Assembly: GCA_041495285.1 (NCBI GenBank)
Contig: JBGQCJ010000005.1
Span: 15,374-79,373 of the forward strand
Reading direction: 5' to 3'
Source: Verrucomicrobiia bacterium
GTDB lineage: Bacteria > Verrucomicrobiota > Verrucomicrobiia > Palsa-1439
Length of the DNA stretch: 64,000 nucleotides
Below the pieces are notes generated by a model. The model was not told where the DNA came from and searched no databases. It worked only from the letters and a program-made list of their open reading frames with translations. Each line of letters starts with the position of its first letter. The stretch's first letter is position 1. The translations under genes and the position numbers were made by a program. Of the stretch, positions 4,224 through 56,095 are shown in pieces.

Positions 4224-5321
4224 ATGAAAGCCACTCTGATATTTCTGTTTGCAGCAGTCGGTTTGCTGGCCGCGCACGATGCGTCCGCTGCCGGTGATTT
4301 GACCTGGCAGGAGTTGGCGCGCCGTCCCGAACTGTGGCCGGCACAAGTCACCGTGAAGGTGGCGATGAAATTCCAAGGCGGGGCAACCGTGCAACCCGGT
4401 CAGAAGGCGAATGTCGTCGAAGTCAAAGCCAACGAGATTGATTTGGTCACGACCGACGGGAAAGTGAACTTCGCCGCCGACCCTGACGAGACTGACGTGC
4501 TGGCCTTGGCTGGCGAAGCATACGCAAAACTCACCCCGAAACAGCGCGAATTGACCTACGCTTCGATCGTTCAACAAAAGGACCTGTGGCCTTACCGGGT
4601 CACCATCACCCGGAGTTTCAGTTTAGCTCCCGGGAAAGACGTGCCGGTTGGCGATCAGGTATTGGTGAAAGACATCCAGCCCGGCAAGGTGGATGTCGTG
4701 TCGGAAAAGCTTAACGCTCGCTTCGCAGTCGCGATGCCGGCCACCGACCTGATGGCGCAAGCCCGGCGGTTTGTTGAAGATGCCCAAGCTGGGCCGCGGC
4801 TACTGGCCATGCAAAAACTGGCCGAGGAGAAAGTGGCCGCAGAGCAAAAAGCTTTGGGAGACAAAATCAAAGCGGGGGGCCGCGTCGTGGCGGAGTTGGA
4901 GGGCAAACTTATCAATTCGCAGACCGGCCAACCCGAACCGCTCGACACCAAGTCCCTGCCCCGGTACCTCGTGTTCTTACGGGGCCAGAGCTCGTGCCCG
5001 ATCACGCGACGATTCGCCCCGACATTTATCAAGTACTGCGCGGAGATGAAGCCGAAGCACCCCGAGTTCGAGGTGATCTACCTGACGATCGAAGATATGC
5101 CCGAGACGGAGAAGTTTGCGAAGGAACTGGGCTTTAGCTGGCGGACTGTGACTTACGAAAACACCACCATGCCCAGCGTCAACCCCTCCATTGATGGGCG
5201 CATCCCGCAGCTCATCGTCATGGATCGCAACGGACGGATCCTGGCCAATGGCGTGCAGAACGACGCACCGACCGCTCTCAAACAGCTCGATGTGCTGCTG
5301 AAACAACCGGCCATGCCGTAG
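4224..5321 (+). CDS. Secreted protein with C-terminal thioredoxin-like (redoxin-like) domain
   Basis: Signal peptide MKATLIFLFAAVGLLAAHDASA; AAAGGAG SD. C-terminal ~130 aa resemble a Trx/redoxin fold around LVFLRGQSSCPITRRFAPTF (SxxC/SCP in place of CxxC). Confidence 0.5.
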   Translation: MKATLIFLFAAVGLLAAHDASAAGDLTWQELARRPELWPAQVTVKVAMKFQGGATVQPGQKANVVEVKANEIDLVTTDGKVNFAADPDETDVLALAGEAYAKLTPKQRELTYASIVQQKDLWPYRVTITRSFSLAPGKDVPVGDQVLVKDIQPGKVDVVSEKLNARFAVAMPATDLMAQARRFVEDAQAGPRLLAMQKLAEEKVAAEQKALGDKIKAGGRVVAELEGKLINSQTGQPEPLDTKSLPRYLVFLRGQSSCPITRRFAPTFIKYCAEMKPKHPEFEVIYLTIEDMPETEKFAKELGFSWRTVTYENTTMPSVNPSIDGRIPQLIVMDRNGRILANGVQNDAPTALKQLDVLLKQPAMP

Positions 5322-44967: not shown

Positions 44968-46428
44968 CTATTCGTTGTGCGGGATCTTGACGGTGCTGGC
45001 GCCGATGAACTCGCGGATGACAGCGTCGCCGGGAATGATGTCGTAGGTCTTGGTCTGCTCGCGCGTGAGGCCCTCCACTGATTCCAGCAGATTCTTCACG
45101 CGTTCGTACCGGATGCGCGCATCGAGAAAACCCCGGTACTGCTCGAAGTCCTCGGGACGCGGCAAGTAACCGCCCTCGCCGATGAAGAACGGCTTGAGCG
45201 CCGCCAAATCAAACGGCAGTCCGCCGTTGACCACGTGATCGGCAATGCCCATCAGCGGGATGATGCTGAACAGCTCACCGGCGCGGACGTAGTGCCAGTG
45301 CAGGATCGTCGAGAGCGGACTGTGATTGCGATGCTGCACGTCGCGCAACATCCGGCGGATCAACCGCACGTCGGTAAACTTCGTCAGCCGGTTCGATTTG
45401 CCGTCGCCCTCGTAAAGCACGTTCATCGTTTCGATGTACACGCGGAATTGCGTGGACTGGTCAATGCCCTCGGTGATCGGCGGATATAGCCCGTGCAGGC
45501 AATCGAGCAGAAGAATCTCGTCCTTCGCGAGCTTGACCGGCTTCGAGGAGATGCGGCGGCCTTCCTTGAAACTGTAGACCGGCTTCTCAATCGTCTTGCC
45601 GTCGAGCAACTCTTTCAGATGTTGATTCAACAACTGGATGTCCAACGCCTCCGGTGTCTCGAAATTCCGGTCGTTGATCCAGTCGGTGGGATGTTCGATC
45701 AACGCCCAGAAATAGTCGTCCAGATTCAGCATCAAAAACTTCAGGCCATGTTTCTGCAACCGCTCTGTCAGCTTCACCGTCGTCGTCGTCTTGCCGGACG
45801 AACTTGGCCCGCTCACCCACATCATGCGAATGTTGTCGCCCGCGTTCAGCCGCGCCATGACCTTCTTGGCCGCCTCGTCCAACGACGCTTCGTACACCGC
45901 CAGCGATTCGTCCACCAGCGGCTTGAGTTTCCCGCGGCGCACGATCTCATTCAGCCCGGCCACTGTGTCGCAACCGCGCTGGCGATTCCACTCCAGTGTC
46001 TTCTCCATGCGCTTCTTCGGAAAACCGTTGCCGACAAACTGTGCGTCGTTGATCGCGCCCTCGCGCAACCAGTGCCGGCCCCAGCGGTAGCATTCGTACG
46101 CGTCGGCGGTGTTCTGGAAACCGTAGCTCCGCAGCGCGTGCAGCACTTCAACCTGAATGTCTTCAATGGTCGGCGGAAAATTCGCAATCAGATGATGCTG
46201 ATCAGAGTTCAGGCAAAGCACGACCGTGTCCGCGAGAAACCCGGCCACCGCCTCGTCCGAGCCGTGCGCCTCGAAAATCTTTTCGTTGATGCCCGGCAGA
46301 AAATCCTGCTGGAATCCGCCGATGGATTGAGCCGCGTGCAGGATGGCCTCGCGGATGCGGCCTTCATCGAACGTGACGAGCGCCCGGTTGCGCTTCTGCA
46401 CTTTGACGATCTGATTTTGAATGGCCAT
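44968..46428 (-). CDS. ATP-cone domain fused to a uridine-kinase/phosphoribulokinase-family P-loop kinase
   Basis: N-terminus IVKVQKRNRALVTFDEGRIREAILHA is ATP-cone-like. Walker A VSGPSSSGKTTTTVKL and LNLDDYF are Udk/PRK-like. Start taken as ATG 46428. Confidence 0.6.
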   Translation of the reverse strand: MAIQNQIVKVQKRNRALVTFDEGRIREAILHAAQSIGGFQQDFLPGINEKIFEAHGSDEAVAGFLADTVVLCLNSDQHHLIANFPPTIEDIQVEVLHALRSYGFQNTADAYECYRWGRHWLREGAINDAQFVGNGFPKKRMEKTLEWNRQRGCDTVAGLNEIVRRGKLKPLVDESLAVYEASLDEAAKKVMARLNAGDNIRMMWVSGPSSSGKTTTTVKLTERLQKHGLKFLMLNLDDYFWALIEHPTDWINDRNFETPEALDIQLLNQHLKELLDGKTIEKPVYSFKEGRRISSKPVKLAKDEILLLDCLHGLYPPITEGIDQSTQFRVYIETMNVLYEGDGKSNRLTKFTDVRLIRRMLRDVQHRNHSPLSTILHWHYVRAGELFSIIPLMGIADHVVNGGLPFDLAALKPFFIGEGGYLPRPEDFEQYRGFLDARIRYERVKNLLESVEGLTREQTKTYDIIPGDAVIREFIGASTVKIPHNE

Positions 46429-46541: not shown

Positions 46542-47189
46542 ATGGAGAAACTTCGTCCCTGCATCGCGGAAGCCATCGGCACGTTTTCGCTCATCTTCGT
46601 CGGCATCGGCGCCATCAAAGCGGCCGGTAACGATCTTCTCGCCGTCGCCCTCGCCCACGGGCTGACCATTGCCGTCTTCGTGTCGGCGACCGGCCACATC
46701 TCCGGCGGGCATCTCAATCCGGCCGTCACCTTCGGCGCGCTCGTCGGCGGCAAGATCAGCCTCAACGACGCCGTGCTCTATTGGATTTCACAACTCGTCG
46801 GCGCGACGCTCGCCGCCTTCGTCTGCCTCGGCCTGTTCACCCGCAGCGTCATCATCGACGGCACCCCGCAACTCGCCGGCGGCACGAACGCGTTCCAAGG
46901 CATCGTCATCGAAGCCATCGTCACCTTCTTCCTCGTGTTCGTTGTGTACGGCACCGCGATTGACCAACGCGGCCCAAAAATCGGCGGACTCGCCATCGGC
47001 CTGACCATCACCATCGGCATCTTGTTTGCCGGACCGCTGACCGGCGGCGCGATCAATCCGGCCCGCGTCTTCGGCCCCGCGCTGGCCGTCAGCTTCTGGA
47101 CCTATCATTACGTCTATTGGCTCGGCCCCATGATCGGCGGCGCGCTGGCCGGCTTGGTTTACAAGAACTGCTTCCTAAGCAAAAGTTGA
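46542..47189 (+). CDS. aqpZ: Aquaporin (MIP family, AqpZ-like)
   Basis: AAGGAGG SD. Two NPA boxes (SGGHLNPAVTFG; [11 protein letters not shown]). Six TM helices. Confidence 0.85.
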   Translation: MEKLRPCIAEAIGTFSLIFVGIGAIKAAGNDLLAVALAHGLTIAVFVSATGHISGGHLNPAVTFGALVGGKISLNDAVLYWISQLVGATLAAFVCLGLFTRSVIIDGTPQLAGGTNAFQGIVIEAIVTFFLVFVVYGTAIDQRGPKIGGLAIGLTITIGILFAGPLTGGAINPARVFGPALAVSFWTYHYVYWLGPMIGGALAGLVYKNCFLSKS

Positions 47190-47213
47190 TTCGTGGTGCC
47201 ACCGAGGTCGCGG

Positions 47214-48506
47214 CTATCTGGTGATGGTAGGGGCGGAGGCGACTGCTTGACTGTAACTGGGCGGCCTAAGCTGCGCTTGAGGAACCGGTGGCTGACTCAC
47301 GGTGAGTCGTGTCGTGTCGCCGGCCCAGCGTTGCAGACACGGCTGCAGAGCCGAGCGGCGTCGGCGTAGGTCTTTGATCATAGCGGCTTGGACGAACTCC
47401 TCCAAATCTGGTGGAGCGTTGGGACAGCGTTCCCGCAAAGGCGGTGGGGTTTCTTCCCGGTGTACCCTGGCCCACGCGTCCTCAGTCTCGGCGGGGAACG
47501 GTAATTGTCCGGTCAACAATTCGTACACCGTCATGCCCAAACTGTAAAAGTCCGCTTCCGGGCTGCCGCGTGAGCCGGCAAATCGCTCCGGCGCGGCATA
47601 GCCGGGCGTCATGCCGGTTTCGATGGCGGCCGCGTCCACCAACGACCCGGCAATGCCGAAATCCACCAGTTTGATCAGGCCGTCCGTGCTGATCATGATG
47701 TTGCTGGGTTTGATATCACAGTGGACCACCGATCGCGCGTGCGCCGCCTGCAGCCCACGCACGACCGCGAGCGTCACGCTGCGTACGTCCGTCGCCTTGA
47801 GCGGACCGCGCTGGATCATCCCTTCCTGTCCATTGCCGCCACGGACGTATTCGAGCACGAGAAACGCGGTGCCGTACAGTTCGATGAGATCACAGAGGTT
47901 GACGATGTTCTCGTGGTGCAACTGCCGCAGCAAGTACGCCTCCTGCCGGTAGCGTTCGAGAAAACGCGGCTGTTGAACGAGCGGGTGCGGGAGCATCTTC
48001 AACGCGAATTCCTCCGGGCCGCGCACGGCACGGAACACCCAGCCCATGTTGCCAGCGCCGAGTTGCTCGACGACTTCATACGAGCCGATGCGCCGCGCCA
48101 GCACGTCGGCACCCGACCAGCTCAGCCGATGCGCCACGAGCCGGGTCAAAATGATTTTCAGGTTGGGCAACTGCCGACAGAGTTCGTCGAAATCATCGGC
48201 GGCCAGACGGGACAGCGTGCAATCGGTGATGGCCGCCACATCGGCGTTGCGCGGTTCGCGGTTCAGCAGCGCCATTTCGCCAACGACGTGGCCCACGCCG
48301 AAGCGGGCGAGCGGCTGACCGGCCCGGCGCACTTCGACTTCGCCCTGACGGACGAGGTACAGACAATCGCCCGGCCCGCCTTCGCGAATGAACACCTCGC
48401 CCGCAGAGAAACGTTGATCCACGAGGCGGGTTCGCAGGAGGGCGGCCTCCTTTTCGGCGAGCTTCGCCCAAAGATCGAAGGCCGGAGCTGACGGAGTCGC
48501 CACCAT
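47214..48506 (-). CDS. Ser/Thr protein kinase with N-terminal cyclic-nucleotide-binding domain
   Basis: cNMP-binding region (FSAGEVFIREGGPGDCLYLVRQGEV...GEMALL). Hanks kinase motifs (GAGNMGWVFRA, ALK, HCDIKPSNIM, DFGIA, APE). Confidence 0.8.
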   Translation of the reverse strand: MVATPSAPAFDLWAKLAEKEAALLRTRLVDQRFSAGEVFIREGGPGDCLYLVRQGEVEVRRAGQPLARFGVGHVVGEMALLNREPRNADVAAITDCTLSRLAADDFDELCRQLPNLKIILTRLVAHRLSWSGADVLARRIGSYEVVEQLGAGNMGWVFRAVRGPEEFALKMLPHPLVQQPRFLERYRQEAYLLRQLHHENIVNLCDLIELYGTAFLVLEYVRGGNGQEGMIQRGPLKATDVRSVTLAVVRGLQAAHARSVVHCDIKPSNIMISTDGLIKLVDFGIAGSLVDAAAIETGMTPGYAAPERFAGSRGSPEADFYSLGMTVYELLTGQLPFPAETEDAWARVHREETPPPLRERCPNAPPDLEEFVQAAMIKDLRRRRSALQPCLQRWAGDTTRLTVSQPPVPQAQLRPPSYSQAVASAPTITR

Positions 48507-48669
48507 GTACCTGATTATCGGCGTCCCGCGCGATGCAATCAACACAACAATCAAATGGGAAAACTGCCGCTTGCTTCACAGAATCGTTTTGGCTAGCATG
48601 ACCGGAGCGTGAGGCAACACGAGGCGTGGCCCGCTGGCGGCGGCGCCAGTCGGAGAAACGGAGAAGAAT

Positions 48670-49044
48670 ATGCCCTACTTGGTCCATAAAGATCGCGACG
48701 GTTCGGTCATTCAATTCTGGAATCTTCACGAAGGACCGACGACCGTTGGCCGCGGGAACGAGGCGAACGCCAAAGTCGAAGACAACCTCTTGTCGAAAAC
48801 ACATTTCCGCATCACCCATGAATCCACCGGCTTCACCCTCAAGGATTTGGGGTCAAAGAATGGCACGCTCGTCAACGGTCAGGGCGTGACGGAACAACTC
48901 CTGAAGTCCAACGACAAAATCCGGGCGGGCGACTCCACGTTCTTCTTTGTGGAAGGACTCACCACCATGGCCGGCAAGATTGACCAAGACATCGACGAGT
49001 TGGGTGGACACGCACCCGGCTCGACGCCTTCACCCAAAAAGTAG
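48670..49044 (+). CDS. FHA domain protein
   Basis: [28 protein letters not shown]...[15 protein letters not shown] is an FHA signature. Divergent from the kinase gene. Confidence 0.7.
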
Positions 49045-49081
49045 CCGCCGCCGGTCCAACTATTCGTGTAGTACCCGCCGC

Positions 49082-49237
49082 CCGCTGACCGGCGGCGCGA
49101 TCAACCCGGCCCGTGTGTTCGGCCCCGCGCTCGCCGTCAGCTTTTGGAACGCCCACTACGTTTACTGGCTCGGCCCGCTGATCGGCGGCGCGCTGGCCGG
49201 CTTGGTTTACAAGAACTGCTTCCTAAGCAAGAGTTGA
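49082..49237 (+). pseudogene. Orphan 3' fragment of an aquaporin gene (last ~51 codons plus stop)
   Basis: 156 bp about 90% identical to aqpZ 47034-47189. Encodes ...[50 protein letters not shown]. No upstream aquaporin body. Confidence 0.6.
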
Positions 49238-49825
49238 AGGCGGGAAACTGGCAACGTTGTTGGGAGAGGGAGCGCAGACGGTGGTGAGCTTGTCCGCCAG
49301 GACGGGCAAGCCGTGCGTCGGCGGGGCAAGGCCGTCTTTTAGAAGCGCATTGATTGTCCCGATTAGATCCGCGCCCTTGACAGGCTTCGTGACGAGCCCT
49401 TGCACGCCCTCGCGGAAACTGACCGGCAAACTATCGATGTCCACGTCAATAACGGCAATGACCTTGATTTGCGGATTGAGTCTGCGTGCGTACTTCAGGG
49501 TCTCCGCTCCGTTCAACCGCGGCATACTGTAATCCAGCAGCACTACCTGGAGATCGCCTTGGTAGTAACGCATGATGTCCAGCCCTTTCGCCCCGCTGGT
49601 GGAAGTCAACACGTCAAACCCAGTCCCGACCAGAAGTTCGCGGACAGTCTCCAGATACTCCCTGTCATCATCAATGACCAACACAGTCGGCGTTGATCTC
49701 TGGACCGGCAGATCTTTTTTCTGTGCCTTGACCCGGGAGGCTTCAGTCAAGAAAGAGCCGAAGAACCCCTTCAACAGTGTGAAAGCTGCAAGTCCACCCA
49801 TCTTAATCACGCCCTTCTCCCTCAT
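49223..49825 (-). CDS. Response-regulator receiver domain protein
   Basis: [27 protein letters not shown]...[13 protein letters not shown]...IKVIAVI... is a REC domain. Start uncertain (M1 or M9). 3' end overlaps the aquaporin fragment. Confidence 0.6.
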
Positions 49826-49930: not shown

Positions 49931-50155
49931 TTATATGGCGTTCGAGGCCTCTATCTGTGGTGGGCTGAAAACCACAGGGCACGTGGTGCGTTTCAATGGG
50001 GGATTCGGGACGGGCAACGTGATGTGGTCGCCCTCGGCGTACACCTGTACCCGCGTACCCTCATCGATTTCGAACTCCTTACGCAACCAGCGCGGGATCA
50101 CCACCTGACCCTTCACTGTAAAGTAGATCGTGTCTGTTCTGGTAGTTGGCTTCAT
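49931..50155 (-). CDS. AbrB/MazE/SpoVT-family (swapped-hairpin) small DNA-binding protein
   Basis: 74 aa. TIYFTVKGQVVIPRWLRKEFEIDEGTRVQVYAEGDHITL matches the SpoVT-AbrB fold. Local GC is lower. No cognate toxin gene adjacent. Confidence 0.5.
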   Translation of the reverse strand: MKPTTRTDTIYFTVKGQVVIPRWLRKEFEIDEGTRVQVYAEGDHITLPVPNPPLKRTTCPVVFSPPQIEASNAI

Positions 50156-50319: not shown

Positions 50320-52992
50320 CTAACTCGGCTTCGGCTTTTGCCCGAACAGATACATCTGCGGCGGCTCTTGAATTTCTGACTTCTGACTCCTGTCTCCTGA
50401 CTTCTGCTTCCGCTCCGCCAGCTTCGGCTGCCCTTCGGCAGACAGTTCGGCTTCTTCGAGGTTGGCGAGGACTTCCTTCGCGCGGGTGATGACTTCTTTC
50501 GGCAAGCCGGCAAGACGGGCGACCTGGATGCCGTAGCTCTTGTCGGTGCCGCCGGGGAGAATCTTGTGGAGGAAAATCACTTGATCGTGCCATTCGCGGA
50601 CGGCGACGTTGTAGTTCTTCACGCGCGGCAACGTCGCGGCAAGTTCGGTCAACTCGTGATAGTGCGTCGCGAACAGCGTTTTCGCGCCGACTGCGTTGTG
50701 GAGGTGTTCGGCCACCGCCCACGCGATGCTCAAGCCGTCGAACGTGCTCGTGCCGCGTCCAATCTCATCGAGTACAACCAGACTCTTCGGCGTCGCGTTG
50801 TTCAAGATGTTCGCCGTCTCGTTCATCTCGACCATGAACGTGCTTTGCCCGCGCGCCAAATCGTCGTTCGCGCCGACGCGCGTGAAGATGCGATCCACCA
50901 AACCGACAGTCGCGCTCTTTGCCGGGATGAACGAGCCGACCTGCGCCATCAACACCAGCAACGCAACTTGCCGGATATACGTGCTCTTGCCCGCCATGTT
51001 CGGGCCGGTAATGATGAGAATCTGTTGCTCCGTGTTATCGAGCAGCGTGTCGTTGGGCACGAACCGCTCCTCGATGAGGGTTTGTTCCAATACCGGATGC
51101 CGTCCGTCCGTAATCTCGATTCGATCGGCATCGTTCACAGCCGGTCGGCAATAATTCTGGTGCCGCGCCAGCTCTGCGAATCCCGCCAGCACATCGAGCG
51201 CGGCAATCGCGGACGCTGATTGCTGGACAGCAACGGACTCATCCAGCACCGCATCGCGCACTTGCTGGAAGATTTCGTACTCCAGCGCCGCCGCGCGTTC
51301 CTCGGCCCCGAGAATCCTGCCCTCCATCTCCTTCAACTCGGGCGTGTAAAAACGTTCGCCACCGGCAATGGTCTGCTTGCGGATGTAGTCGCTCGGCACT
51401 TTGTCGAGATTGGCCTTCGTCACTTCGATGTAATAGCCGAATACGGAATTGAACCGTACCTTGAGTGACGCAATGCCGGTCCGCTCGATCTCACGTTGCT
51501 GGAGCGCAGCAATCCATTCCTTGCCTTCGCGCGAGCCGCCCCGGAGTTCGTCGAGTTCCGCGCTGTAGCCGGCCTTGATGATTCCGCCTTCTTTCAACGC
51601 CAGCGGCGGCGCATCTTCAATGGCGCGCGCAACGAGATCGACGACGTCCGGAAGCTCGGTGATTTGCGAGACGAGAATTTGTAGGAGCGGCCTGCCGGCC
51701 GCGACCGGGTTGGCGACCGGTGGTTCGGAGGATCGCGGCCGGGAGGCCGCTCCTACGACGGCACCAAGTGCCTTCTTCAACTTCGGCAATGCCGCTAGAG
51801 ATTCCTTGAGCGCGACGAGATCACGAGCGTTACCGGAGCCGACGCTTAACCGGCCAAGCGTGCGTTCCATGTCGCGCACGTCGCGCAACCGTTCGCGAAA
51901 CTCGGCCAGCACGTGTGGCGCTTCACAAAACGACGCTATTACGCCTTGACGCTCCACGATCTTCTCCACGTCCTTCAACGGATGCGTCAGCCATTCGCGG
52001 AGCAACCGCGCGCCCATCGGTGTGAGCGTGCGATCCATGCAACCAATGAGTGTGTGTTTCCGGTCGGTGCGCGGTGATTCGAGCAATTCGAGATTTCGCT
52101 GCGTCACGGCGTCGAGCACCATGAAGTCAGCGATGCTGTACACTTGCAGCCCGTGGATGTGCGCGGTGTTGCGCCGGAGCGATTGTGTGAGGTAGTGCAA
52201 CGCGGCACCCGCCGCGCCGATGCCAACGGTCAGATTGGCGGCACCGAAGCCGTCGAGCGATTGCGTCTTGAAGTGGTCCCGCAGCGTGAAGAACGCCGTC
52301 TCGCGCTCGAACGTCCAACCGTCGTGCGGCGTCGCACTGATGCCGAGGGCTTTCGCTTCGTCGAACCATTCCGCCGGTACGATGATCTCTGCCGGTCGGA
52401 CGCGCGCCAATTCGTTTTGGAGTTGTTCGGCGGTCACCAACTCCGTGACCTTAAAGTCGCCGGTCGTGAGATCAACCAGCGCGAGGCCGAAGCGAGCCGA
52501 TTCGGGACGAGGTGTAGTAGCGCCTGTCTCAGGCGCTGAGGACATTGATTTGCCGCTGGGGACAGCGGCTACTACACCGGCAACCGGACAAATCGCCGCG
52601 AGGAAGTTGTTGCGTTCGGCGTGGAGGATATGCGCGTCGAAGTGCGTGCCGGGGCTGAGGATTTGCGTGACGTCGCGGTTGACGAGCTTGCCGGGTTTGG
52701 CTTCCTCGAGCTGATCGCACACGGCAACTTTGCGGCCGGCGCGAAGGATTTTGCCGATGTAGGTCTCGGCGGCGTGGTGCGGGATGCCGCACATCGGGAC
52801 GCCGTTGCGGTGTGTGAGCGCGAGATTGAGTAGTTGCGAGCCGGTCTTGGCGTCGTCGAAGAACATTTCGTAGAAATCGCCGAGCCGAAAGAGGAGCAGC
52901 GCGTCCGGTGGGATTTCGTGTTTGATGCGCCGGTACTGCTGCATCATTGGAGACAGTCCGCTGGCCGGCTTCTGGGTTTTGTCACTCGCCAT
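50320..52992 (-). CDS. mutS: DNA mismatch repair protein MutS
   Basis: 890 aa. N-terminal mismatch-binding MMQQY..IK...LLFRLGDFYEMF. Walker A ITGPNMAGKSTYIRQ. Walker B/ABC region. Confidence 0.9.
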   Translation of the reverse strand: MASDKTQKPASGLSPMMQQYRRIKHEIPPDALLLFRLGDFYEMFFDDAKTGSQLLNLALTHRNGVPMCGIPHHAAETYIGKILRAGRKVAVCDQLEEAKPGKLVNRDVTQILSPGTHFDAHILHAERNNFLAAICPVAGVVAAVPSGKSMSSAPETGATTPRPESARFGLALVDLTTGDFKVTELVTAEQLQNELARVRPAEIIVPAEWFDEAKALGISATPHDGWTFERETAFFTLRDHFKTQSLDGFGAANLTVGIGAAGAALHYLTQSLRRNTAHIHGLQVYSIADFMVLDAVTQRNLELLESPRTDRKHTLIGCMDRTLTPMGARLLREWLTHPLKDVEKIVERQGVIASFCEAPHVLAEFRERLRDVRDMERTLGRLSVGSGNARDLVALKESLAALPKLKKALGAVVGAASRPRSSEPPVANPVAAGRPLLQILVSQITELPDVVDLVARAIEDAPPLALKEGGIIKAGYSAELDELRGGSREGKEWIAALQQREIERTGIASLKVRFNSVFGYYIEVTKANLDKVPSDYIRKQTIAGGERFYTPELKEMEGRILGAEERAAALEYEIFQQVRDAVLDESVAVQQSASAIAALDVLAGFAELARHQNYCRPAVNDADRIEITDGRHPVLEQTLIEERFVPNDTLLDNTEQQILIITGPNMAGKSTYIRQVALLVLMAQVGSFIPAKSATVGLVDRIFTRVGANDDLARGQSTFMVEMNETANILNNATPKSLVVLDEIGRGTSTFDGLSIAWAVAEHLHNAVGAKTLFATHYHELTELAATLPRVKNYNVAVREWHDQVIFLHKILPGGTDKSYGIQVARLAGLPKEVITRAKEVLANLEEAELSAEGQPKLAERKQKSGDRSQKSEIQEPPQMYLFGQKPKPS

Positions 52993-53376: not shown

Positions 53377-53775
53377 TCAGCGTGCGAAAAGCTCTTTGAG
53401 CGCGGTGCGAAGTTGTTCCATCTCGAAGGGTTTTTCGAGCAGCGTGTTGCCGGTGCGATAAATGAAGTCGGCCAGCCCGGCGCGGCGGCCGGGATTGCCG
53501 GTGATGAAGATGAATTTCTCGGCCAGATAGGGATATTGCCGGATGACCTCGTTATAGAGCGACTCGCCGTCCACGCGGGGCATCATCAGGTCGCAGATCA
53601 CCGCCTCGTAATCCGCGCCGCGCAACATATCCATGGCTTCCATCCCGTTGGCGGCGATGTCCGCGATGCAATTTTCGTAGGTGAGCACTTCGGAAAGCAA
53701 TTCGGCAAGCTGGTAGTCGTCCTCGACCACCAACACGCGATGGACGTACTCGACGGGACGCTTGGACTCGGTCAC
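53377..53775 (-). CDS. Stand-alone response-regulator receiver domain (CheY-like)
   Basis: VLVVEDDYQLAELLSEVL...AVICDLMMPRVDG...FIFITG... ; GTG start. Confidence 0.75.
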   Translation of the reverse strand: MTESKRPVEYVHRVLVVEDDYQLAELLSEVLTYENCIADIAANGMEAMDMLRGADYEAVICDLMMPRVDGESLYNEVIRQYPYLAEKFIFITGNPGRRAGLADFIYRTGNTLLEKPFEMEQLRTALKELFAR

Positions 53776-53796
53776 TTGAAGTTCCTCACCGAAAAC

Positions 53797-53840
53797 TGGA
53801 GCCGGCGATCAGACTTGAACTGATAACCTGCTGATTACAA
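53797..53840 (-). other. tRNA 3'-half-like sequence (T-arm, acceptor 3' strand, CCA), candidate att/direct-repeat remnant at the element boundary
   Basis: Minus strand reads ATCAG-TTCAAGT-CTGAT-CGCCGGC-T-CCA: a perfect 5-bp T-stem, T-loop of TTCRANT type, 7-nt acceptor strand, discriminator, CCA. No matching 5' acceptor, D-arm or anticodon arm upstream. Confidence 0.35.
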
Positions 53841-53950
53841 ATTGCACTAGGTGTGTTTCAGCCCGTGTCAGCTTGCGCTGCATTGTGCACGCCATCATGC
53901 TCCACTGCAAGGGCTTTTCTGTTTCATGCTCGCTGGTGAAACACCGCGAA

Positions 53951-55213
53951 TCATCCCGTCACCGGAAGCGCCGTGTGACTAGCCTTCGCGTCTACTTCGA
54001 CCGCCTTCCCGGTCACTGTCAGCCGAATTCGCCGGGCCTGCGCCAACAGATGGTCGGGACGCACGTCACCGTAGGTGTGCGCGATCAGGGCGGGGCCGGA
54101 CTTATCACCAAGCAGCGCCGCAATCTCGCTGTCTGTCAGCCCGGATTCTCGCGCTTGCGTGACGTAGAAACTTCGCAACCCGTGCGGGGTGACGTGCCCG
54201 ATCTTCAATTTCCGGCAAGCCGCCGTCAGCCGATGCCGGACGGCAGCCGCATCGCGGGGTTTGCTGGGGTCAAAGGGTGACGCGAACAGCAACGGGCTTG
54301 TTGCCCGTTCCTGCATAGCGCTCAGCAAGGCTTCCAGTTCAGGCGTGATTGCCACCCACGGCGTCACGCCCTTCTTCTCGCGTATCACATTCACAAGTCC
54401 TTCGGCCAGATTCACCATGCCCCACCGCAGCGGCAGCGCCTCGCCAATCCGCAAGCCGCTGTAGGCGAGAAATGCCACAAGGTCAGCAATCGCAATTTCG
54501 TTACGCCGGCGCAGCCAGCCGATGATTGCCTGCAAGCCTTCGGGTGTCGGCGCAACTTCCCGGCAGTGCCGCACGTCGGCGGCGCTAGTGTACGTGGTGC
54601 GGTCGCGCATCGGATTGGATTTCAACAGGTCGCGCCGGACGGCAAAGCGCAACACGTTGCCGAAGACGCCAAGCTCTAGGTCAACCGCGCGGTCGCCGCC
54701 CGTCGTGCGTTTGGTCCTTTCGTGCCCGCGCAGCTTATAGGTGACAACGTAACCGCCGCTCTTGCGCCAGGCGTGGTAACGGTCGCAATCGGCGTTCGTC
54801 ACCGACGCGGCAGGGTGCTCGCCGAAGTAGGCCAGCAATGGGCGCAGATGCCGCCGCTCGTTGTAGATCGTGCGGGGCAATTTCCGCCCCTTCGTCTTGC
54901 GTGGGTAGCCTGCCGTTTCGTATTCCGTTGCCAGTTCGCGCACCGTCACGCGCCCGCGCTGCAAGACAACGCCTTCGGGTTCAATCCCGTTTCGTATCAG
55001 CCAATGGTCACGCTTCCACTTCCGCAACCATTTGCGGGCGTCACTAGCATTGTCGGTTTCAGTGCTCTTCCAAGTCAACTTGCGATTGTCGCGCACGCGG
55101 GCGTAAATCTTCTTCCCTTCATAACGGAAGTGCTTCCCGCTTTCGTCCACGCCCTCGCGGACTTGCCGCGCCAAGCACGGGCCAATTATCTCGAAGCGTG
55201 TTTTGCTGGTCAT
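53951..55213 (-). CDS. Tyrosine-type site-specific integrase
   Basis: C-terminal catalytic domain with R...HGLRSFYVTQ...(H-x-x-R)...Y (LIAHTYG) tetrad. N-terminal SAM-like/arm-binding region. Confidence 0.85.
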   Translation of the reverse strand: MTSKTRFEIIGPCLARQVREGVDESGKHFRYEGKKIYARVRDNRKLTWKSTETDNASDARKWLRKWKRDHWLIRNGIEPEGVVLQRGRVTVRELATEYETAGYPRKTKGRKLPRTIYNERRHLRPLLAYFGEHPAASVTNADCDRYHAWRKSGGYVVTYKLRGHERTKRTTGGDRAVDLELGVFGNVLRFAVRRDLLKSNPMRDRTTYTSAADVRHCREVAPTPEGLQAIIGWLRRRNEIAIADLVAFLAYSGLRIGEALPLRWGMVNLAEGLVNVIREKKGVTPWVAITPELEALLSAMQERATSPLLFASPFDPSKPRDAAAVRHRLTAACRKLKIGHVTPHGLRSFYVTQARESGLTDSEIAALLGDKSGPALIAHTYGDVRPDHLLAQARRIRLTVTGKAVEVDAKASHTALPVTG

Positions 55214-55374
55214 GGCAGTTTCTCCAAGTAACGGGCGATCAGTTGGTCAATCACCCAACTTCTTTGCCGGTCCTTCTTGTCGCAGTACGTCTCCATCTTC
55301 GCTGCTGATTCGGGCGACACCGTTATGGACCATTTCACAGTTACGCCTTTGGGACTATTTGTTGGTCTGACCAT
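55210..55374 (-). CDS. Possible small ribbon-helix-helix (CopG-like) protein, stop overlapping the integrase start
   Basis: 54-aa ORF ...VKWSITVSPESAAKMETYCDKKDRQRSWVIDQLIARYLEKLP* has a beta-strand then two helices, typical of RHH. ATGA overlap with int. Its 5' end overlaps the recombinase 3' end by about 20 nt. Confidence 0.3.
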   Translation of the reverse strand: MVRPTNSPKGVTVKWSITVSPESAAKMETYCDKKDRQRSWVIDQLIARYLEKLP

Positions 55375-56095
55375 TGCGTATCTCCTTCTTGGTTGTGGCG
55401 CTCAAGGGATTTGTCCGCGCCAGGATTCTTAGAACTTGGATCGGTGTCCATTCAGTATGCCCGCGCTTCGTTGTCGCGCCGATCTTTTGCAGCTTGGCTG
55501 CGATCTTACGCAACGAAAAGCCGCGCTGACGCTGCTTACGGACAATGCCAATTACGCGTTGCTCGGTGTCGTTAGGCACCAGTTTTCCATCCACCGCCAC
55601 AAATCCAAACGGCACATCACCGCCGAGCTTCTCGCTGCGCTGCCGCTTGTATTGCATCGCACGCAGTGTTTTCTCGCTGATTTCCTTTCGGTAAACTTCA
55701 GCGAGGAGTGCCTTCAGCGTCAAATCCATCGTGCCGCTCACGGTCTTGTTTTCAACGAAGCCTTTATCCAGCGTGAAGAGCCGCGCCTTCGCCGGGCCGC
55801 AGACATCCTCCAAAAAAATCAGGGTATCCTTCTGCGAGCGGGACAATCGCGACAAGTCCGCAACAACGACGATGTTTGCCGCCTTCGCTTTCACCATCGC
55901 AACGAGCGCAGCAAATCCAGGCCGCTTGCTGGCGGGTTTTCCGCCACTGACGCCTTCGTCGCGCAACACCGCAATCAGTTCCCAGCTTTGCCGCGCGGCC
56001 TCGGCACAAATCAGCGCTTCTTGCCGTTGCAAGCTCTCGCCGTCTTTGACCTGCTCCTCTGTGCTTACGCGAATGTAACCGACTGACTTTATCAT
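55355..56095 (-). CDS. Serine recombinase (resolvase/invertase family) with C-terminal HTH
   Basis: SVGYIRVSTEEQ...GESLQRQ has the catalytic Ser motif. About 246 aa with C-terminal DNA-binding region. Confidence 0.85.
   Translation of the reverse strand: MIKSVGYIRVSTEEQVKDGESLQRQEALICAEAARQSWELIAVLRDEGVSGGKPASKRPGFAALVAMVKAKAANIVVVADLSRLSRSQKDTLIFLEDVCGPAKARLFTLDKGFVENKTVSGTMDLTLKALLAEVYRKEISEKTLRAMQYKRQRSEKLGGDVPFGFVAVDGKLVPNDTEQRVIGIVRKQRQRGFSLRKIAAKLQKIGATTKRGHTEWTPIQVLRILARTNPLSATTKKEIRNGQTNK

Follow-up and report, generated by a model that had tools for sequence, protein, structure and literature searches.

The locus and its direct repeat

The analysed window is a stretch of 64,000 nucleotides from a Verrucomicrobiia bacterium, and all coordinates below refer to it. 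The genes and features considered here lie between a kinase-like gene and mutS, which are the conserved flanks of a variable interval, as follows.

44968-46428, minus strand: PRK/uridine-kinase-like gene with ATP-cone domain (Pfam PRK and ATP-cone); conserved left flank of the variable interval
46542-47189, plus strand: intact aquaporin gene (MIP family), 215 aa, start ATG at 46542 (Pfam MIP profile positions 6-222 of 222)
47034-47189, plus strand: repeat copy A, the last 51 codons and stop of the aquaporin gene (direct-repeat alignment)
47131-47182, plus strand: 52-nt tract of copy A, identical to copy B (repeat positions 98-149)
47190-49081, no strand: cargo between the repeats, 1892 nt
47214-48506, minus strand: Ser/Thr protein kinase with N-terminal cyclic-nucleotide-binding domain, 430 aa (Pfam cNMP_binding and Pkinase)
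48670-49044, plus strand: FHA-domain protein, 124 aa, divergent from the kinase gene (Pfam FHA)
49082-49237, plus strand: repeat copy B, orphan aquaporin 3' end without the 5' part, 51 intact codons and stop (alignment, Pfam MIP)
49179-49230, plus strand: 52-nt tract of copy B, identical to copy A
49223-49825, minus strand: receiver-domain response regulator (Pfam Response_reg, residues 48-158)
49931-50155, minus strand: small AbrB/MazE-like protein, 74 aa (Pfam MazE_antitoxin at threshold); lineage-specific interval content
50320-52992, minus strand: mutS (MutS domains I-V); conserved right flank of the variable interval

Copies A and B were aligned without gaps over 156 nt, of which 141 are identical (90.4%; 15 mismatches), and the pair, with a spacing of 2048 nt, ranked first among the direct repeats of the surrounding 9 kb. 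The repeat comprises the final 51 codons and the stop codon of the intact aquaporin gene, and its homology ends sharply at both edges (left, at CCGCTGACC; right, at the TGA stop). At the right junction (49081/49082) the homology begins abruptly at CCGCTGACC, and on the left side the aquaporin gene runs on uninterrupted. GC-rich CGGCGGCGCG motifs are present at repeat positions 9-18 and 102-111. The initial annotation had described a 156-bp aquaporin end recurring at about 90% identity, with a cNMP-binding Ser/Thr kinase gene and a divergent FHA gene between the copies; the repeat was confirmed at exactly these coordinates, and the identity of both genes was borne out by the Pfam matches.

Short-read assemblies break at the repeat (Logan contigs L003 and L176 terminate within it), which would fit a chimeric metagenome assembly that joined two strains at the aquaporin tail. 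However, an 8.4-kb contig of a non-identical genome, NCBI MAG GCA_041488115.1 (98-99.7% identity in the neighbouring proteins), has the same gene order, as has a 77-kb JGI contig, and an independent Logan contig extends across the kinase-FHA-orphan junction. Since the arrangement recurs in GCA_041488115.1 and the FHA-orphan junction in an independent Logan assembly, we regard an assembly accident as extremely improbable.

The orphan aquaporin end and its neighbours

Copy B matches the MIP profile at positions 179-222 only; its reading frame is unbroken and its stop codon preserved. At 49004-49237, the gene call for a 77-aa "MIP" protein denotes a relic and no real gene. The response-regulator gene overlaps the orphan by 15 nt, as expected from the initial annotation of the downstream copy as an orphan fragment overlapping that gene; its last five codons and stop codon are inside copy B, and the C-terminal tail and stop codon of the response regulator are by-products of the junction. 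The response-regulator gene had no DNA match in any related locus, the AbrB/MazE-like gene was absent from the relatives examined, and the region formed by the two showed no similarity to any other locus.

The same locus in related genomes

The PRK/ATP-cone gene, which is 72-89% identical across about 80 related loci, was used as the anchor for finding these loci. In the relatives, mutS adjoins the aquaporin gene or an aquaporin relic, and the aquaporin orthologues are 74-92% identical. The interval between PRK and mutS is hypervariable, with at least eight different contents among the related Verrucomicrobiia loci, including the following.

L004: PRK, aquaporin and mutS, with nothing between
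L172: aquaporin, 54-aa ORF and GntR/aminotransferase
L094, L092 and L104: other small cargo
L084: without aquaporin
L096: a different MIP gene
L086, L087, L091 and L093: catalase-peroxidase fused directly to a short aquaporin 3' relic
L101: catalase-peroxidase between an aquaporin 5' piece and a 3' fragment
L102: catalase-peroxidase with a detached aquaporin tail relic
L095: catalase-peroxidase, with no aquaporin relic detected
L005: intact aquaporin and orphan tail, with an unrelated insert of about 510 nt
L177: intact aquaporin and orphan tail, with an unrelated insert of 96 nt

The tree of the flanking gene shows the locus types interleaved. Conserved flanks that enclose differing gene content in relatives are what is looked for in a gene-transfer hotspot, and the PRK/ATP-cone-mutS interval, judged from these comparisons, appears to be such a hotspot in this Verrucomicrobiia clade. 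The breakpoints in the aquaporin gene vary by lineage; the catalase-peroxidase loci break the gene elsewhere.

Two of the loci, L005 and L177, resemble the window in having an intact aquaporin gene followed by an insert and an orphan tail. By manual alignment, the L005 orphan seems to start at the same base as that of the window (with 8 matches in the first 12 nt), and an identical tract lies at the same place in the window and in L005 (positions 98/102-149), followed by differences at the very end; the L005 insert has a 111-aa ORF without Pfam match and is not similar to any other locus. The L177 orphan and the intact tail of the same genome are different alleles (79% identical) with no long identical core in common; this orphan is closer to copy B of the window, including 7 nt of the downstream flank of B, and starts about 100 nt later.

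When the relatives were checked for a kinase-FHA pair between the aquaporin and the response regulator, as the initial annotation had suggested, the pair was absent from the locus. Because the relatives have a single aquaporin at the locus, none of them has the pair there, and the pair occurs elsewhere in other genomes, we take the pair to be an addition. Of the insertion into the aquaporin 3' end that had been proposed, the addition of the pair stood, with the gene left intact and the orphan keeping its native downstream context; an island that targets gene termini and brings a replacement end was not supported (see below). No donor genome with an aquaporin directly followed by the kinase-FHA pair was found, nor was a same-species empty site in which the aquaporin runs into the response regulator; a protein search with the response regulator returned the same arrangement and a contig ending in the repeat.

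The kinase-FHA cargo

The domains of the cargo match their Pfam models (Pkinase, profile positions 1-262 of 263; FHA, 1-67 of 67; in addition to cNMP_binding), and kinase and FHA protein are encoded together, as in a signalling pair. Kinase orthologues are 60-79% identical, and more distant homologues (about 50% identity) are FHA-cNMP-kinase fusions. The pair is kept in L164, L167, L169 and L170 and is a conserved two-gene module that occurs elsewhere. The stretch 47204-49044 of the window matches L164 at 81% DNA identity, the match being limited to that stretch and the flanks being unrelated; the FHA protein is 86% identical to the partner gene product in L164. In L164 and L167-L170 the kinase gene or the pair is located near large surface-protein genes, and in L166 the kinase gene is in another context, followed by genes for a CarboxypepD_reg-like protein and a HAMP/guanylate cyclase; in none of these genomes (L164, L166-L170) do the kinase-FHA homologues lie beside an aquaporin gene. 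In L164, the pair has on either side a copy of a 55-nt repeat made up of another gene's 3' end; bracketing repeats were searched for around the pair in L167-L170, and none were found. A candidate aquaporin-tail relic after the FHA gene of L164 was rejected, as the local alignment was no better than those of shuffled sequences (p = 0.17).

Only one kinase ORF is present in the 64-kb window, which has no second copy of the kinase-FHA pair. The kinase domain matches the PADLOC models of the PD-T4-6 anti-phage kinase (E 6e-59) over residues 139-412 only, and the cNMP domain and the FHA partner are outside these models. The insert is not distinguished by base composition (GC 0.62-0.66 vs about 0.60 in the neighbours).

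Divergence and mosaic structure of the two copies

By the method of Nei and Gojobori, copies A and B have 11 synonymous and 4 non-synonymous differences (dS, 0.36; dN, 0.036; dN/dS, about 0.10). The initial annotation was therefore correct that the differences are almost all synonymous, and its proposed dN/dS comparison gave a ratio of 0.10; the H/A amino-acid difference that it listed was misread, the actual differences being T/N, Y/A and M/L. Since the differences are so strongly synonymous, which is a signature of purifying selection, the orphan probably derives from an allele that was functional until recently. An in-place duplication with subsequent neutral decay of copy B was rejected (p about 0.005), and on the branch of copy B itself there were 4 synonymous and 1 non-synonymous changes. 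Compared with copy B and with L171, an intact allele, copy A has 10 changes of its own, including a WTYH patch, and the intact P0121 protein has the WNAH residues of copy B. Over its first 97 nt, copy B is 91.8% identical to L171, which is from another organism, vs 85.6% to copy A. Taken together (dS of 0.36, dN/dS of 0.10, and B nearer to L171 than to A at positions 1-97), the incoming and resident copies have the character of diverged alleles of one gene.

The low dN/dS would also be expected if the kinase-FHA pair had formerly lain between two full aquaporin genes, of which the downstream one had lost its 5' 492 nt, so that copy B was once part of a functional gene, and a remnant of a second, deleted paralogue had been offered as an alternative in the initial annotation. 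However, no locus with two full aquaporins was found among 80 genome loci and 80 metagenome loci, and two full ones in tandem are absent from all of the roughly 25 related loci in which aquaporin sequence persists; convergent with the aquaporin in the relatives lies mutS or other cargo, and in no case another aquaporin. Furthermore, A and B are far closer to each other (90%) than either is to other aquaporin tails, the exception being that of the near relative L171 (87-90%), and the 64-kb window has no further aquaporin paralogue. Two tandem aquaporins in relatives, which were to decide for this alternative, are lacking, so it is not supported, and we consider it very unlikely.

The divergence is not evenly distributed. 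Over the first 97 nt of the repeat the copies diverge by 14%, and over the following 52 nt they do not differ at all, with 1 difference in the whole of positions 98-156; an identical run of 52 nt would arise by chance with a probability of about 0.02. The closest intact allele, L171, differs at 6 sites inside this tract, and hence the identity is not attributable to sequence constraint. A target-site duplication of the transposon type was rejected, as there is no transposase and the copies, given the signature of selection, were not identical at the outset. In addition, 156 nt far exceeds the known target-site duplications of transposons.

The mosaic structure could be accounted for by in-place duplication through template switching in the course of replication or repair. 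Synthesis would have reached the aquaporin end, taken in a copy of the kinase-FHA pair from another place in the genome and then restarted 156 nt further upstream, leaving an insertion with a duplication, at first identical, on its two sides; afterwards, allelic homologous recombination from an insert-free strain would have replaced the aquaporin to about position 97 of copy A. Near-identity at positions 98-156 (1 difference) alongside 14% divergence at 1-97 would follow, as would the fact that the outlier is copy A and not B. Since incoming alleles are homologous only as far as the aquaporin stop, crossovers must resolve within the 3' end of the gene, and the GC-rich motifs at repeat positions 9-18 and 102-111 also suit this route. 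Yet two events are required, the window offers no second kinase-FHA pair as a template, and L177, in which orphan and intact tail are different alleles, is left unexplained. We therefore judge this history to be unlikely.

Exchange of cassettes without an integrase was also considered: circles of cargo and one hybrid tail would pop out via tail-tail recombination and re-enter by a single RecA-dependent crossover, the tail being a reusable landing pad. The order tail-cargo-tail is found in three genomes with differing cargo, the identical tracts are co-located in two of the three, and pop-out would leave a single copy, as is seen in the relatives; moreover, variable crossover points would let A and B trade roles, which would explain the selected appearance of copy B. 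Against this, the circles are hypothetical and an initial duplicating event is still required, 52 nt of identity is short for efficient RecA-dependent integration, and the cargo of L177 is merely 96 nt. This route is quite unlikely in our estimation, and we are equally doubtful of its wider form, in which the aquaporin tail would be a recombinase-free landing pad that circles re-enter via a preferred crossover tract of roughly 50 nt, with unrelated cassettes (the kinase-FHA pair, the 111-aa ORF and the 96-nt remnant) traded at one gene end across species. If this were true, the 55-nt repeat of L164 would hint at gene-tail duplication as a general mode of cassette movement.

Searches for recombinases, RNA genes and mobile elements

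No recombinase, tRNA or known RNA was detected in or beside the 1.9-kb insert (Pfam, tRNA search and Rfam), and scans of 46-50.5 kb with Rfam at a permissive threshold and for tRNA, promoters and terminators gave nothing beyond chance. Searches of IMG/VR and of phage and plasmid collections, with the aquaporin clade, the kinase and the whole segment as queries, returned nothing relevant. There is no recombinase between the repeats in the window, L005 or L177 (inserts of 1892, about 510 and 96 nt, respectively), as would be sought in an island, where its gene usually adjoins one att site; the nearest tyrosine integrase and serine resolvase are 4.7 kb away, beyond mutS.

The direct repeats do have an identical core (52 nt within 156 nt) of the kind sought in att sites. 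On this basis, the aquaporin 3' end may be the att site of an integrase-mediated island that inserted site-specifically within the 52-nt tract, with A as attL, B as attR and the recombinase later lost or acting in trans. The succession of a diverged arm, an identical tract and an end difference agrees with this, as do its recurrence, around other cargo, at the corresponding place in L005, the apparently shared left edge of the two orphans, and the integrase and resolvase 4.7 kb away. However, the recombinase is lacking between the repeats in all three genomes, the L177 orphan has no long identical core with its own intact tail, the aquaporin is broken at other positions in other lineages, the same cargo is found in L164 without any aquaporin sequence, and relatives are missing from the viral and plasmid collections searched. 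In addition, the part of an attP left of the crossover would stay untranslated, yet the left part of copy B looks selected. An island that targets the termini of protein genes and carries its own replacement end, as the initial annotation put forward, also sits poorly with the fact that only the last 7 nt would be replaceable. Because the identical 52-nt tract resembles an att core, we treat the island as weakened rather than dismissed, and rate it as unlikely.

A probable recombination scar at a hotspot

Copy B is, in our view, somewhat more probably than otherwise the stranded 3' end of a recently intact aquaporin allele in its native downstream context. It would be the scar left when DNA was inserted or replaced by way of a homologous anchor at a gene-transfer hotspot, and the copies would later have exchanged sequence; we give less credence to an integrase-borne island or to paralogue decay. 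We infer the following order of events, in which a homologous and an illegitimate joint are combined. The conserved flanks would act as homology arms, between which the contents of the interval are swapped. An incoming segment, made up of the cNMP-kinase/FHA pair preceded by an aquaporin gene or a part of one that included the 3' end, would have been joined into the resident gene, on the aquaporin side by homologous recombination and on the other by an illegitimate, GC-rich joint at codon 165 of the resident gene. The product would be a complete working aquaporin, two new genes and then the old tail, which would have ceased to be translated. Over roughly the final 55 nt, the copies may later have been homogenised by gene conversion, or this stretch may mark the crossover. 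No dedicated recombinase would be required.

Several observations count against such a scar. Neither the donor arrangement nor the same-species empty site was found, as noted above. The apparent common orphan start in the window and L005 is unexpected for two independent illegitimate joints, and the co-located identical tract of these two loci resembles a core of the att type or a favoured site of crossover, so that the scar model needs the conversion as an extra step. If the recurrent 50-nt identical tract is a preferred crossover site, cassettes could be exchanged without a dedicated recombinase.

The locus would be an example of a hotspot whose edge lies inside a working gene without destroying it, since the incoming DNA would supply or preserve a complete gene end and leave the old one behind. 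Stranded tails may then be small fossils of earlier alleles, from which the order of exchanges could be reconstructed in uncultured soil Verrucomicrobia, for which there are no genetic tools.

Comparison with known systems

Campbell-type integration of a circle by a single crossover in a gene fragment is known chiefly from laboratory suicide vectors. It likewise yields a full gene, an insert and a truncated copy, both copies being chimeric at the crossover; unlike there, a natural source of circles at this locus is hypothetical.

Islands and prophages at gene 3' ends (tRNA/tmRNA and some protein genes), and the tycheposon hotspots with partial tRNA arrays (bioRxiv 10.1101/2020.12.28.424599), share with the window the 3'-end direct repeats that bracket cargo and leave the gene intact, the identical stretch in the repeats, and the recurrence of orphan gene ends at one locus. 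In contrast, the segment in the window has no integrase or other recombinase, its repeats are 10% diverged, 97 nt to the left of the putative crossover are gene-like, and the breakpoints are not fixed across lineages.

In homology-facilitated illegitimate recombination, described for naturally transformable bacteria and for conjugation in E. coli, DNA is joined by one homologous and one illegitimate junction (PMC3240628). The window would be similar in this pairing, in the foreign DNA beside the anchor and in the GC-rich junctions, but the outcome here is a 156-nt duplication and not a deletion, because the illegitimate joint would lie upstream of the anchor end.

Transferred genes cluster in hotspots between core genes (Oliveira, Touchon and Rocha 2017, PMC5635113), and the short PRK/ATP-cone-mutS interval is like these in its fast turnover of cargo, in flanks that may serve as homology arms, and in having no mobile-element genes between the two flanks in the window; the comparison here is drawn across MAGs and metagenome contigs of different species, unlike a within-species pangenome. 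The structure in the window is most likely an ordinary recombination scar at a locus whose contents change often in these soil Verrucomicrobia. It differs from the described hotspots (PMC5635113) in that its edge lies within a gene, the aquaporin, so that turnover leaves gene-end relics.

Structure of the repeated aquaporin 3' end

The 3' end of the aquaporin gene was found twice, as described in the initial annotation: copy A (47034-47189), which is the end of the intact gene, and copy B (49082-49237), an orphan tail, were aligned without gaps over 156 nt with 15 mismatches (90.4% identity). The pair is the top direct repeat within the surrounding 9 kb (start-to-start spacing, 2048 nt), with the left edge at CCGCTGACC and the right edge at the TGA stop codon; on extending the alignment, no homology was detected beyond either edge.

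Features around the repeat (window coordinates)
46542-47189, plus strand: aquaporin (MIP family), start ATG at 46542, 215 aa, Pfam MIP profile positions 6-222 of 222
47214-48506, minus strand: kinase with a cyclic-nucleotide-binding domain (Pfam), between A and B
48670-49044, plus strand: FHA protein (Pfam), between A and B, divergent from the kinase
49223-49825, minus strand: receiver-domain response regulator, its end lying 15 nt inside copy B

With the aquaporin start at 46542, the repeat spans codons 165-215 and the stop codon; the Pfam MIP match of copy B was limited to profile positions 179-222. The 77-aa "MIP" gene at 49004-49237 in the JGI public annotation, which shares bases with the FHA gene's end, consists of the orphan tail and of read-through sequence upstream of it and is not a plausible aquaporin. 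The response regulator carries a low-complexity C-terminal tail of about 35 residues past the receiver domain (49223-49330), in which intergenic DNA is read through and the stop codon TAG arises from an aquaporin CTA leucine codon; rather than being native, this extension probably arose as a side effect of the junction. Since a 77-kb JGI contig and an NCBI MAG contig (from a slightly different genome) both show this gene order, and the junction between the FHA gene and copy B was spanned by an independent assembly, the structure is real.

Signs of mobile elements

Neither the insert nor its surroundings showed any sign of a mobile element: the insert contains no recombinase gene and does not stand out in composition, tRNA genes are absent over 30 kb, Rfam gave no match in 46-50.5 kb, and promoter-like and terminator-like sites were not in excess. 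Searches of the IMG/VR, phage and plasmid collections with the aquaporin clade, the kinase and the segment yielded no relatives. Past mutS, and thus not between the repeats, there are a tyrosine integrase and a serine resolvase, at a distance of 4.7 kb from copy B. The broader proposal of the initial annotation, that DNA was inserted at the 3' end of the aquaporin gene, is supported; the specific island mechanism suggested with it is not.

The region beyond mutS (about 53377-56095) encodes a second small response regulator, the tyrosine integrase (420 aa), a 54-aa ORF and the serine resolvase (246 aa), and may be another island; different genes occupy this position in the related contig L172. 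Within the mutS frame, two inverted repeats (51681-51756 and 52511-52578; 24-nt arms 96% complementary and 25-nt arms 80% complementary, respectively) match the positions of two in-frame, lineage-specific insertions (about 18 and 29 amino acids); the MutS of L092 lacks them, and that of L172 lacks them wholly or in part. These repeats look like palindromic elements inserted in frame.

Content of the locus in relatives

Relatives were sought by scanning one genome per species with the aquaporin as query, and metagenome contigs with the PRK/ATP-cone protein of the left flank as query. About 25 loci from the same Verrucomicrobiia clade keep aquaporin sequence. In the presence/absence comparison proposed in the initial annotation, no kinase-FHA pair, response regulator or MazE-like gene was located at this place in any of these loci. 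Two complete aquaporins were likewise found in none of them, so the reading of copy B as the remnant of a deleted second aquaporin is not supported; of the four rival explanations considered here, decay of a tandem paralogue is the one most clearly opposed by the comparative data, and we regard it as very improbable.

What lies between PRK and mutS varies by lineage.

Content of the PRK-to-mutS interval in related loci (relic coordinates are those of each contig)
L004: mutS directly adjoining the aquaporin
L092, L088: aquaporin and a small aspartyl-protease-like ORF
L104: aquaporin and a 122-aa ORF
L172, L094: aquaporin and a GntR/aminotransferase regulator
L084: two surface proteins, without aquaporin
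L096: a different MIP gene
Catalase-peroxidase (two peroxidase domains) in place of the aquaporin, in sister lineages: L086 (aquaporin relic, 5260-5312), L087 (1-43), L091 (5790-5836), L093 (7464-7517, 9764-9904), L095, L101 (1996-2274, 5793-5920), L102 (6246-6303)

In L086, L087, L091 and L093, the catalase-peroxidase gene runs straight into a short aquaporin 3' relic, its stop codon lying within the aquaporin-derived sequence; the relic of L102 is separate and downstream, and none was detected in L095. The L086 relic (sequenced in full) has lost an internal stretch that lay between two CGGCGGCGC motifs. An aquaporin 5' relic is also kept on the opposite side of the catalase-peroxidase in L093 and L101; in the latter, a LysR/OxyR-like regulator and the catalase-peroxidase lie between aquaporin nt ~1-128 and 360-end. 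Loci of the aquaporin and catalase types were interleaved in a neighbour-joining tree built from the PRK protein, which indicates that the contents of the locus turn over faster than its flanks or pass between lineages.

Orphan tails in two further genomes

An orphan tail after an intact aquaporin was found in two further genomes, L005 and L177. The L005 aquaporin is 78% identical to that of the window, and its insert (about 510 nt) has one 111-aa ORF without family matches and is unrelated to every other locus compared. The L005 orphan is 93% identical to the L005 intact tail, with four non-synonymous changes and the stop codon lost. Mismatches are confined to repeat positions 16-101 and to four of the last seven bases, with 102-149 identical in between; this layout is the same as that of A and B. 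By manual alignment, eight of the first 12 nt match, so L005 and the window probably have the left edge in common. A specific attachment site or a preferred crossover site would also give such a shared edge and identical tract, which is a weak point of the scar reading preferred here; an integrase-mediated island, its recombinase lost or acting in trans, is considered distinctly unlikely.

The L177 aquaporin is 92% identical to that of the window and is followed by a 96-nt spacer. Its orphan begins at about repeat position 100, encodes the window-type tail and matches window 49184-49244, 7 nt into the flank of copy B; the intact tail (KTFFLSKS) is 79% identical to this orphan, clearly the remnant of a different and older allele. 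This arrangement (L177 547-705) is followed by a convergent surface-protein gene with an RFYR C-terminal motif. Repeat positions 9-18 and 102-111, near both orphan start points, carry the motif CGGCGGCGCG, and it is between these two motifs that the L086 relic has its internal deletion. Recombinase-free pop-out and pop-in of circles via the aquaporin tail is judged improbable; that the tail is a reusable, recombinase-free landing pad has a similarly low probability, and, if true, would be more interesting than an ordinary scar.

History of the two copies

As the initial annotation had stated, most differences between A and B are synonymous (11 synonymous and 4 non-synonymous; Nei-Gojobori dS 0.36, dN 0.036, ratio 0.10). 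For a copy B that was non-functional ever since its duplication, a non-synonymous share of about 62% would be expected, against the 4/15 seen (p ~0.005); the reading frame of copy B is unshifted and its stop codon is retained. The closest intact allele obtained by protein search (P0121 on contig L171; 92% identical to the window aquaporin) has WNAH in the C-terminal region, as does B, where A has WTYH.

Identity between A, B and the L171 allele
Repeat positions 1-97: A vs B 85.6%; B vs L171 91.8%; A vs L171 87.6%
Repeat positions 98-156: A vs B 98.3% (1 difference); B vs L171 86.4%; A vs L171 84.7%

The repeat is a mosaic at the DNA level. Positions 1-97 hold 14 sites of A/B difference, and positions 98-156 hold eight sites where A and B both depart from L171 (Fisher p = 0.01 for the contrast between the two parts; p ~0.02 by permutation for the 52-nt difference-free run). 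Because B is nearer to L171 at positions 1-97 and four of its five private changes there are synonymous, its left part is a recently functional, L171-type allele; the near-identity at positions 98-156 indicates a much more recent common history of both tails. Duplication in place by template switching, followed by allelic exchange, is a rival explanation considered unlikely.

The kinase-FHA pair

Kinase orthologues were 60-79% identical, and verrucomicrobial homologues of about 50% identity (P0035-P0061) have FHA, cNMP-binding and kinase domains fused in one protein, which as Rosetta-stone fusions support a functional link of the separate genes. As predicted from domain content only, the kinase is likely cNMP-regulated, with its phosphothreonine marks read by the FHA protein; it matches the PADLOC PD-T4-6 models solely via the generic catalytic domain. 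The closest homologous pair, on contig L164, shares 81% DNA identity with window 47204-49044, a span of exactly the two genes, with unrelated flanks. Large surface-protein genes lie near the kinase or the pair in L164 and L167-L170 (those of L164, L168 and L169 terminate in ...ATNxPxRFYRV...), and adenylate/guanylate cyclases are nearby in L166 and L169; the L166 kinase has neither an FHA partner nor a surface-protein neighbour. From these other chromosomal settings, the pair is an ordinary chromosomal signalling module, relocated in the lineage of the window.

In L164, the pair is itself bracketed by a direct repeat (841-895 and 2786-2840; 55 nt, 78% identical, 20-nt exact core), which is the 3' end of a surface-protein gene (...PSRFYRVRLV[P/R]*) with mostly synonymous differences. 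It could be a paralogous gene-end relic or a parallel to the aquaporin case.

Origin of copy B

The data fit copy B being a recombination scar at a gene-transfer hotspot. DNA with an aquaporin end followed by the kinase-FHA pair would have been joined to the resident aquaporin gene, and the old aquaporin tail would have stayed before its native neighbour; the last ~55 nt of A and B may have been homogenised later, or may mark a crossover. The genomes and contigs searched contained no donor arrangement and no same-species empty site. Transferred genes cluster in hotspots between conserved core genes (PMC5635113), and integration through a homologous junction on one side and an illegitimate one on the other has been documented (PMC3240628); the locus is a well-preserved case of a known kind of event.
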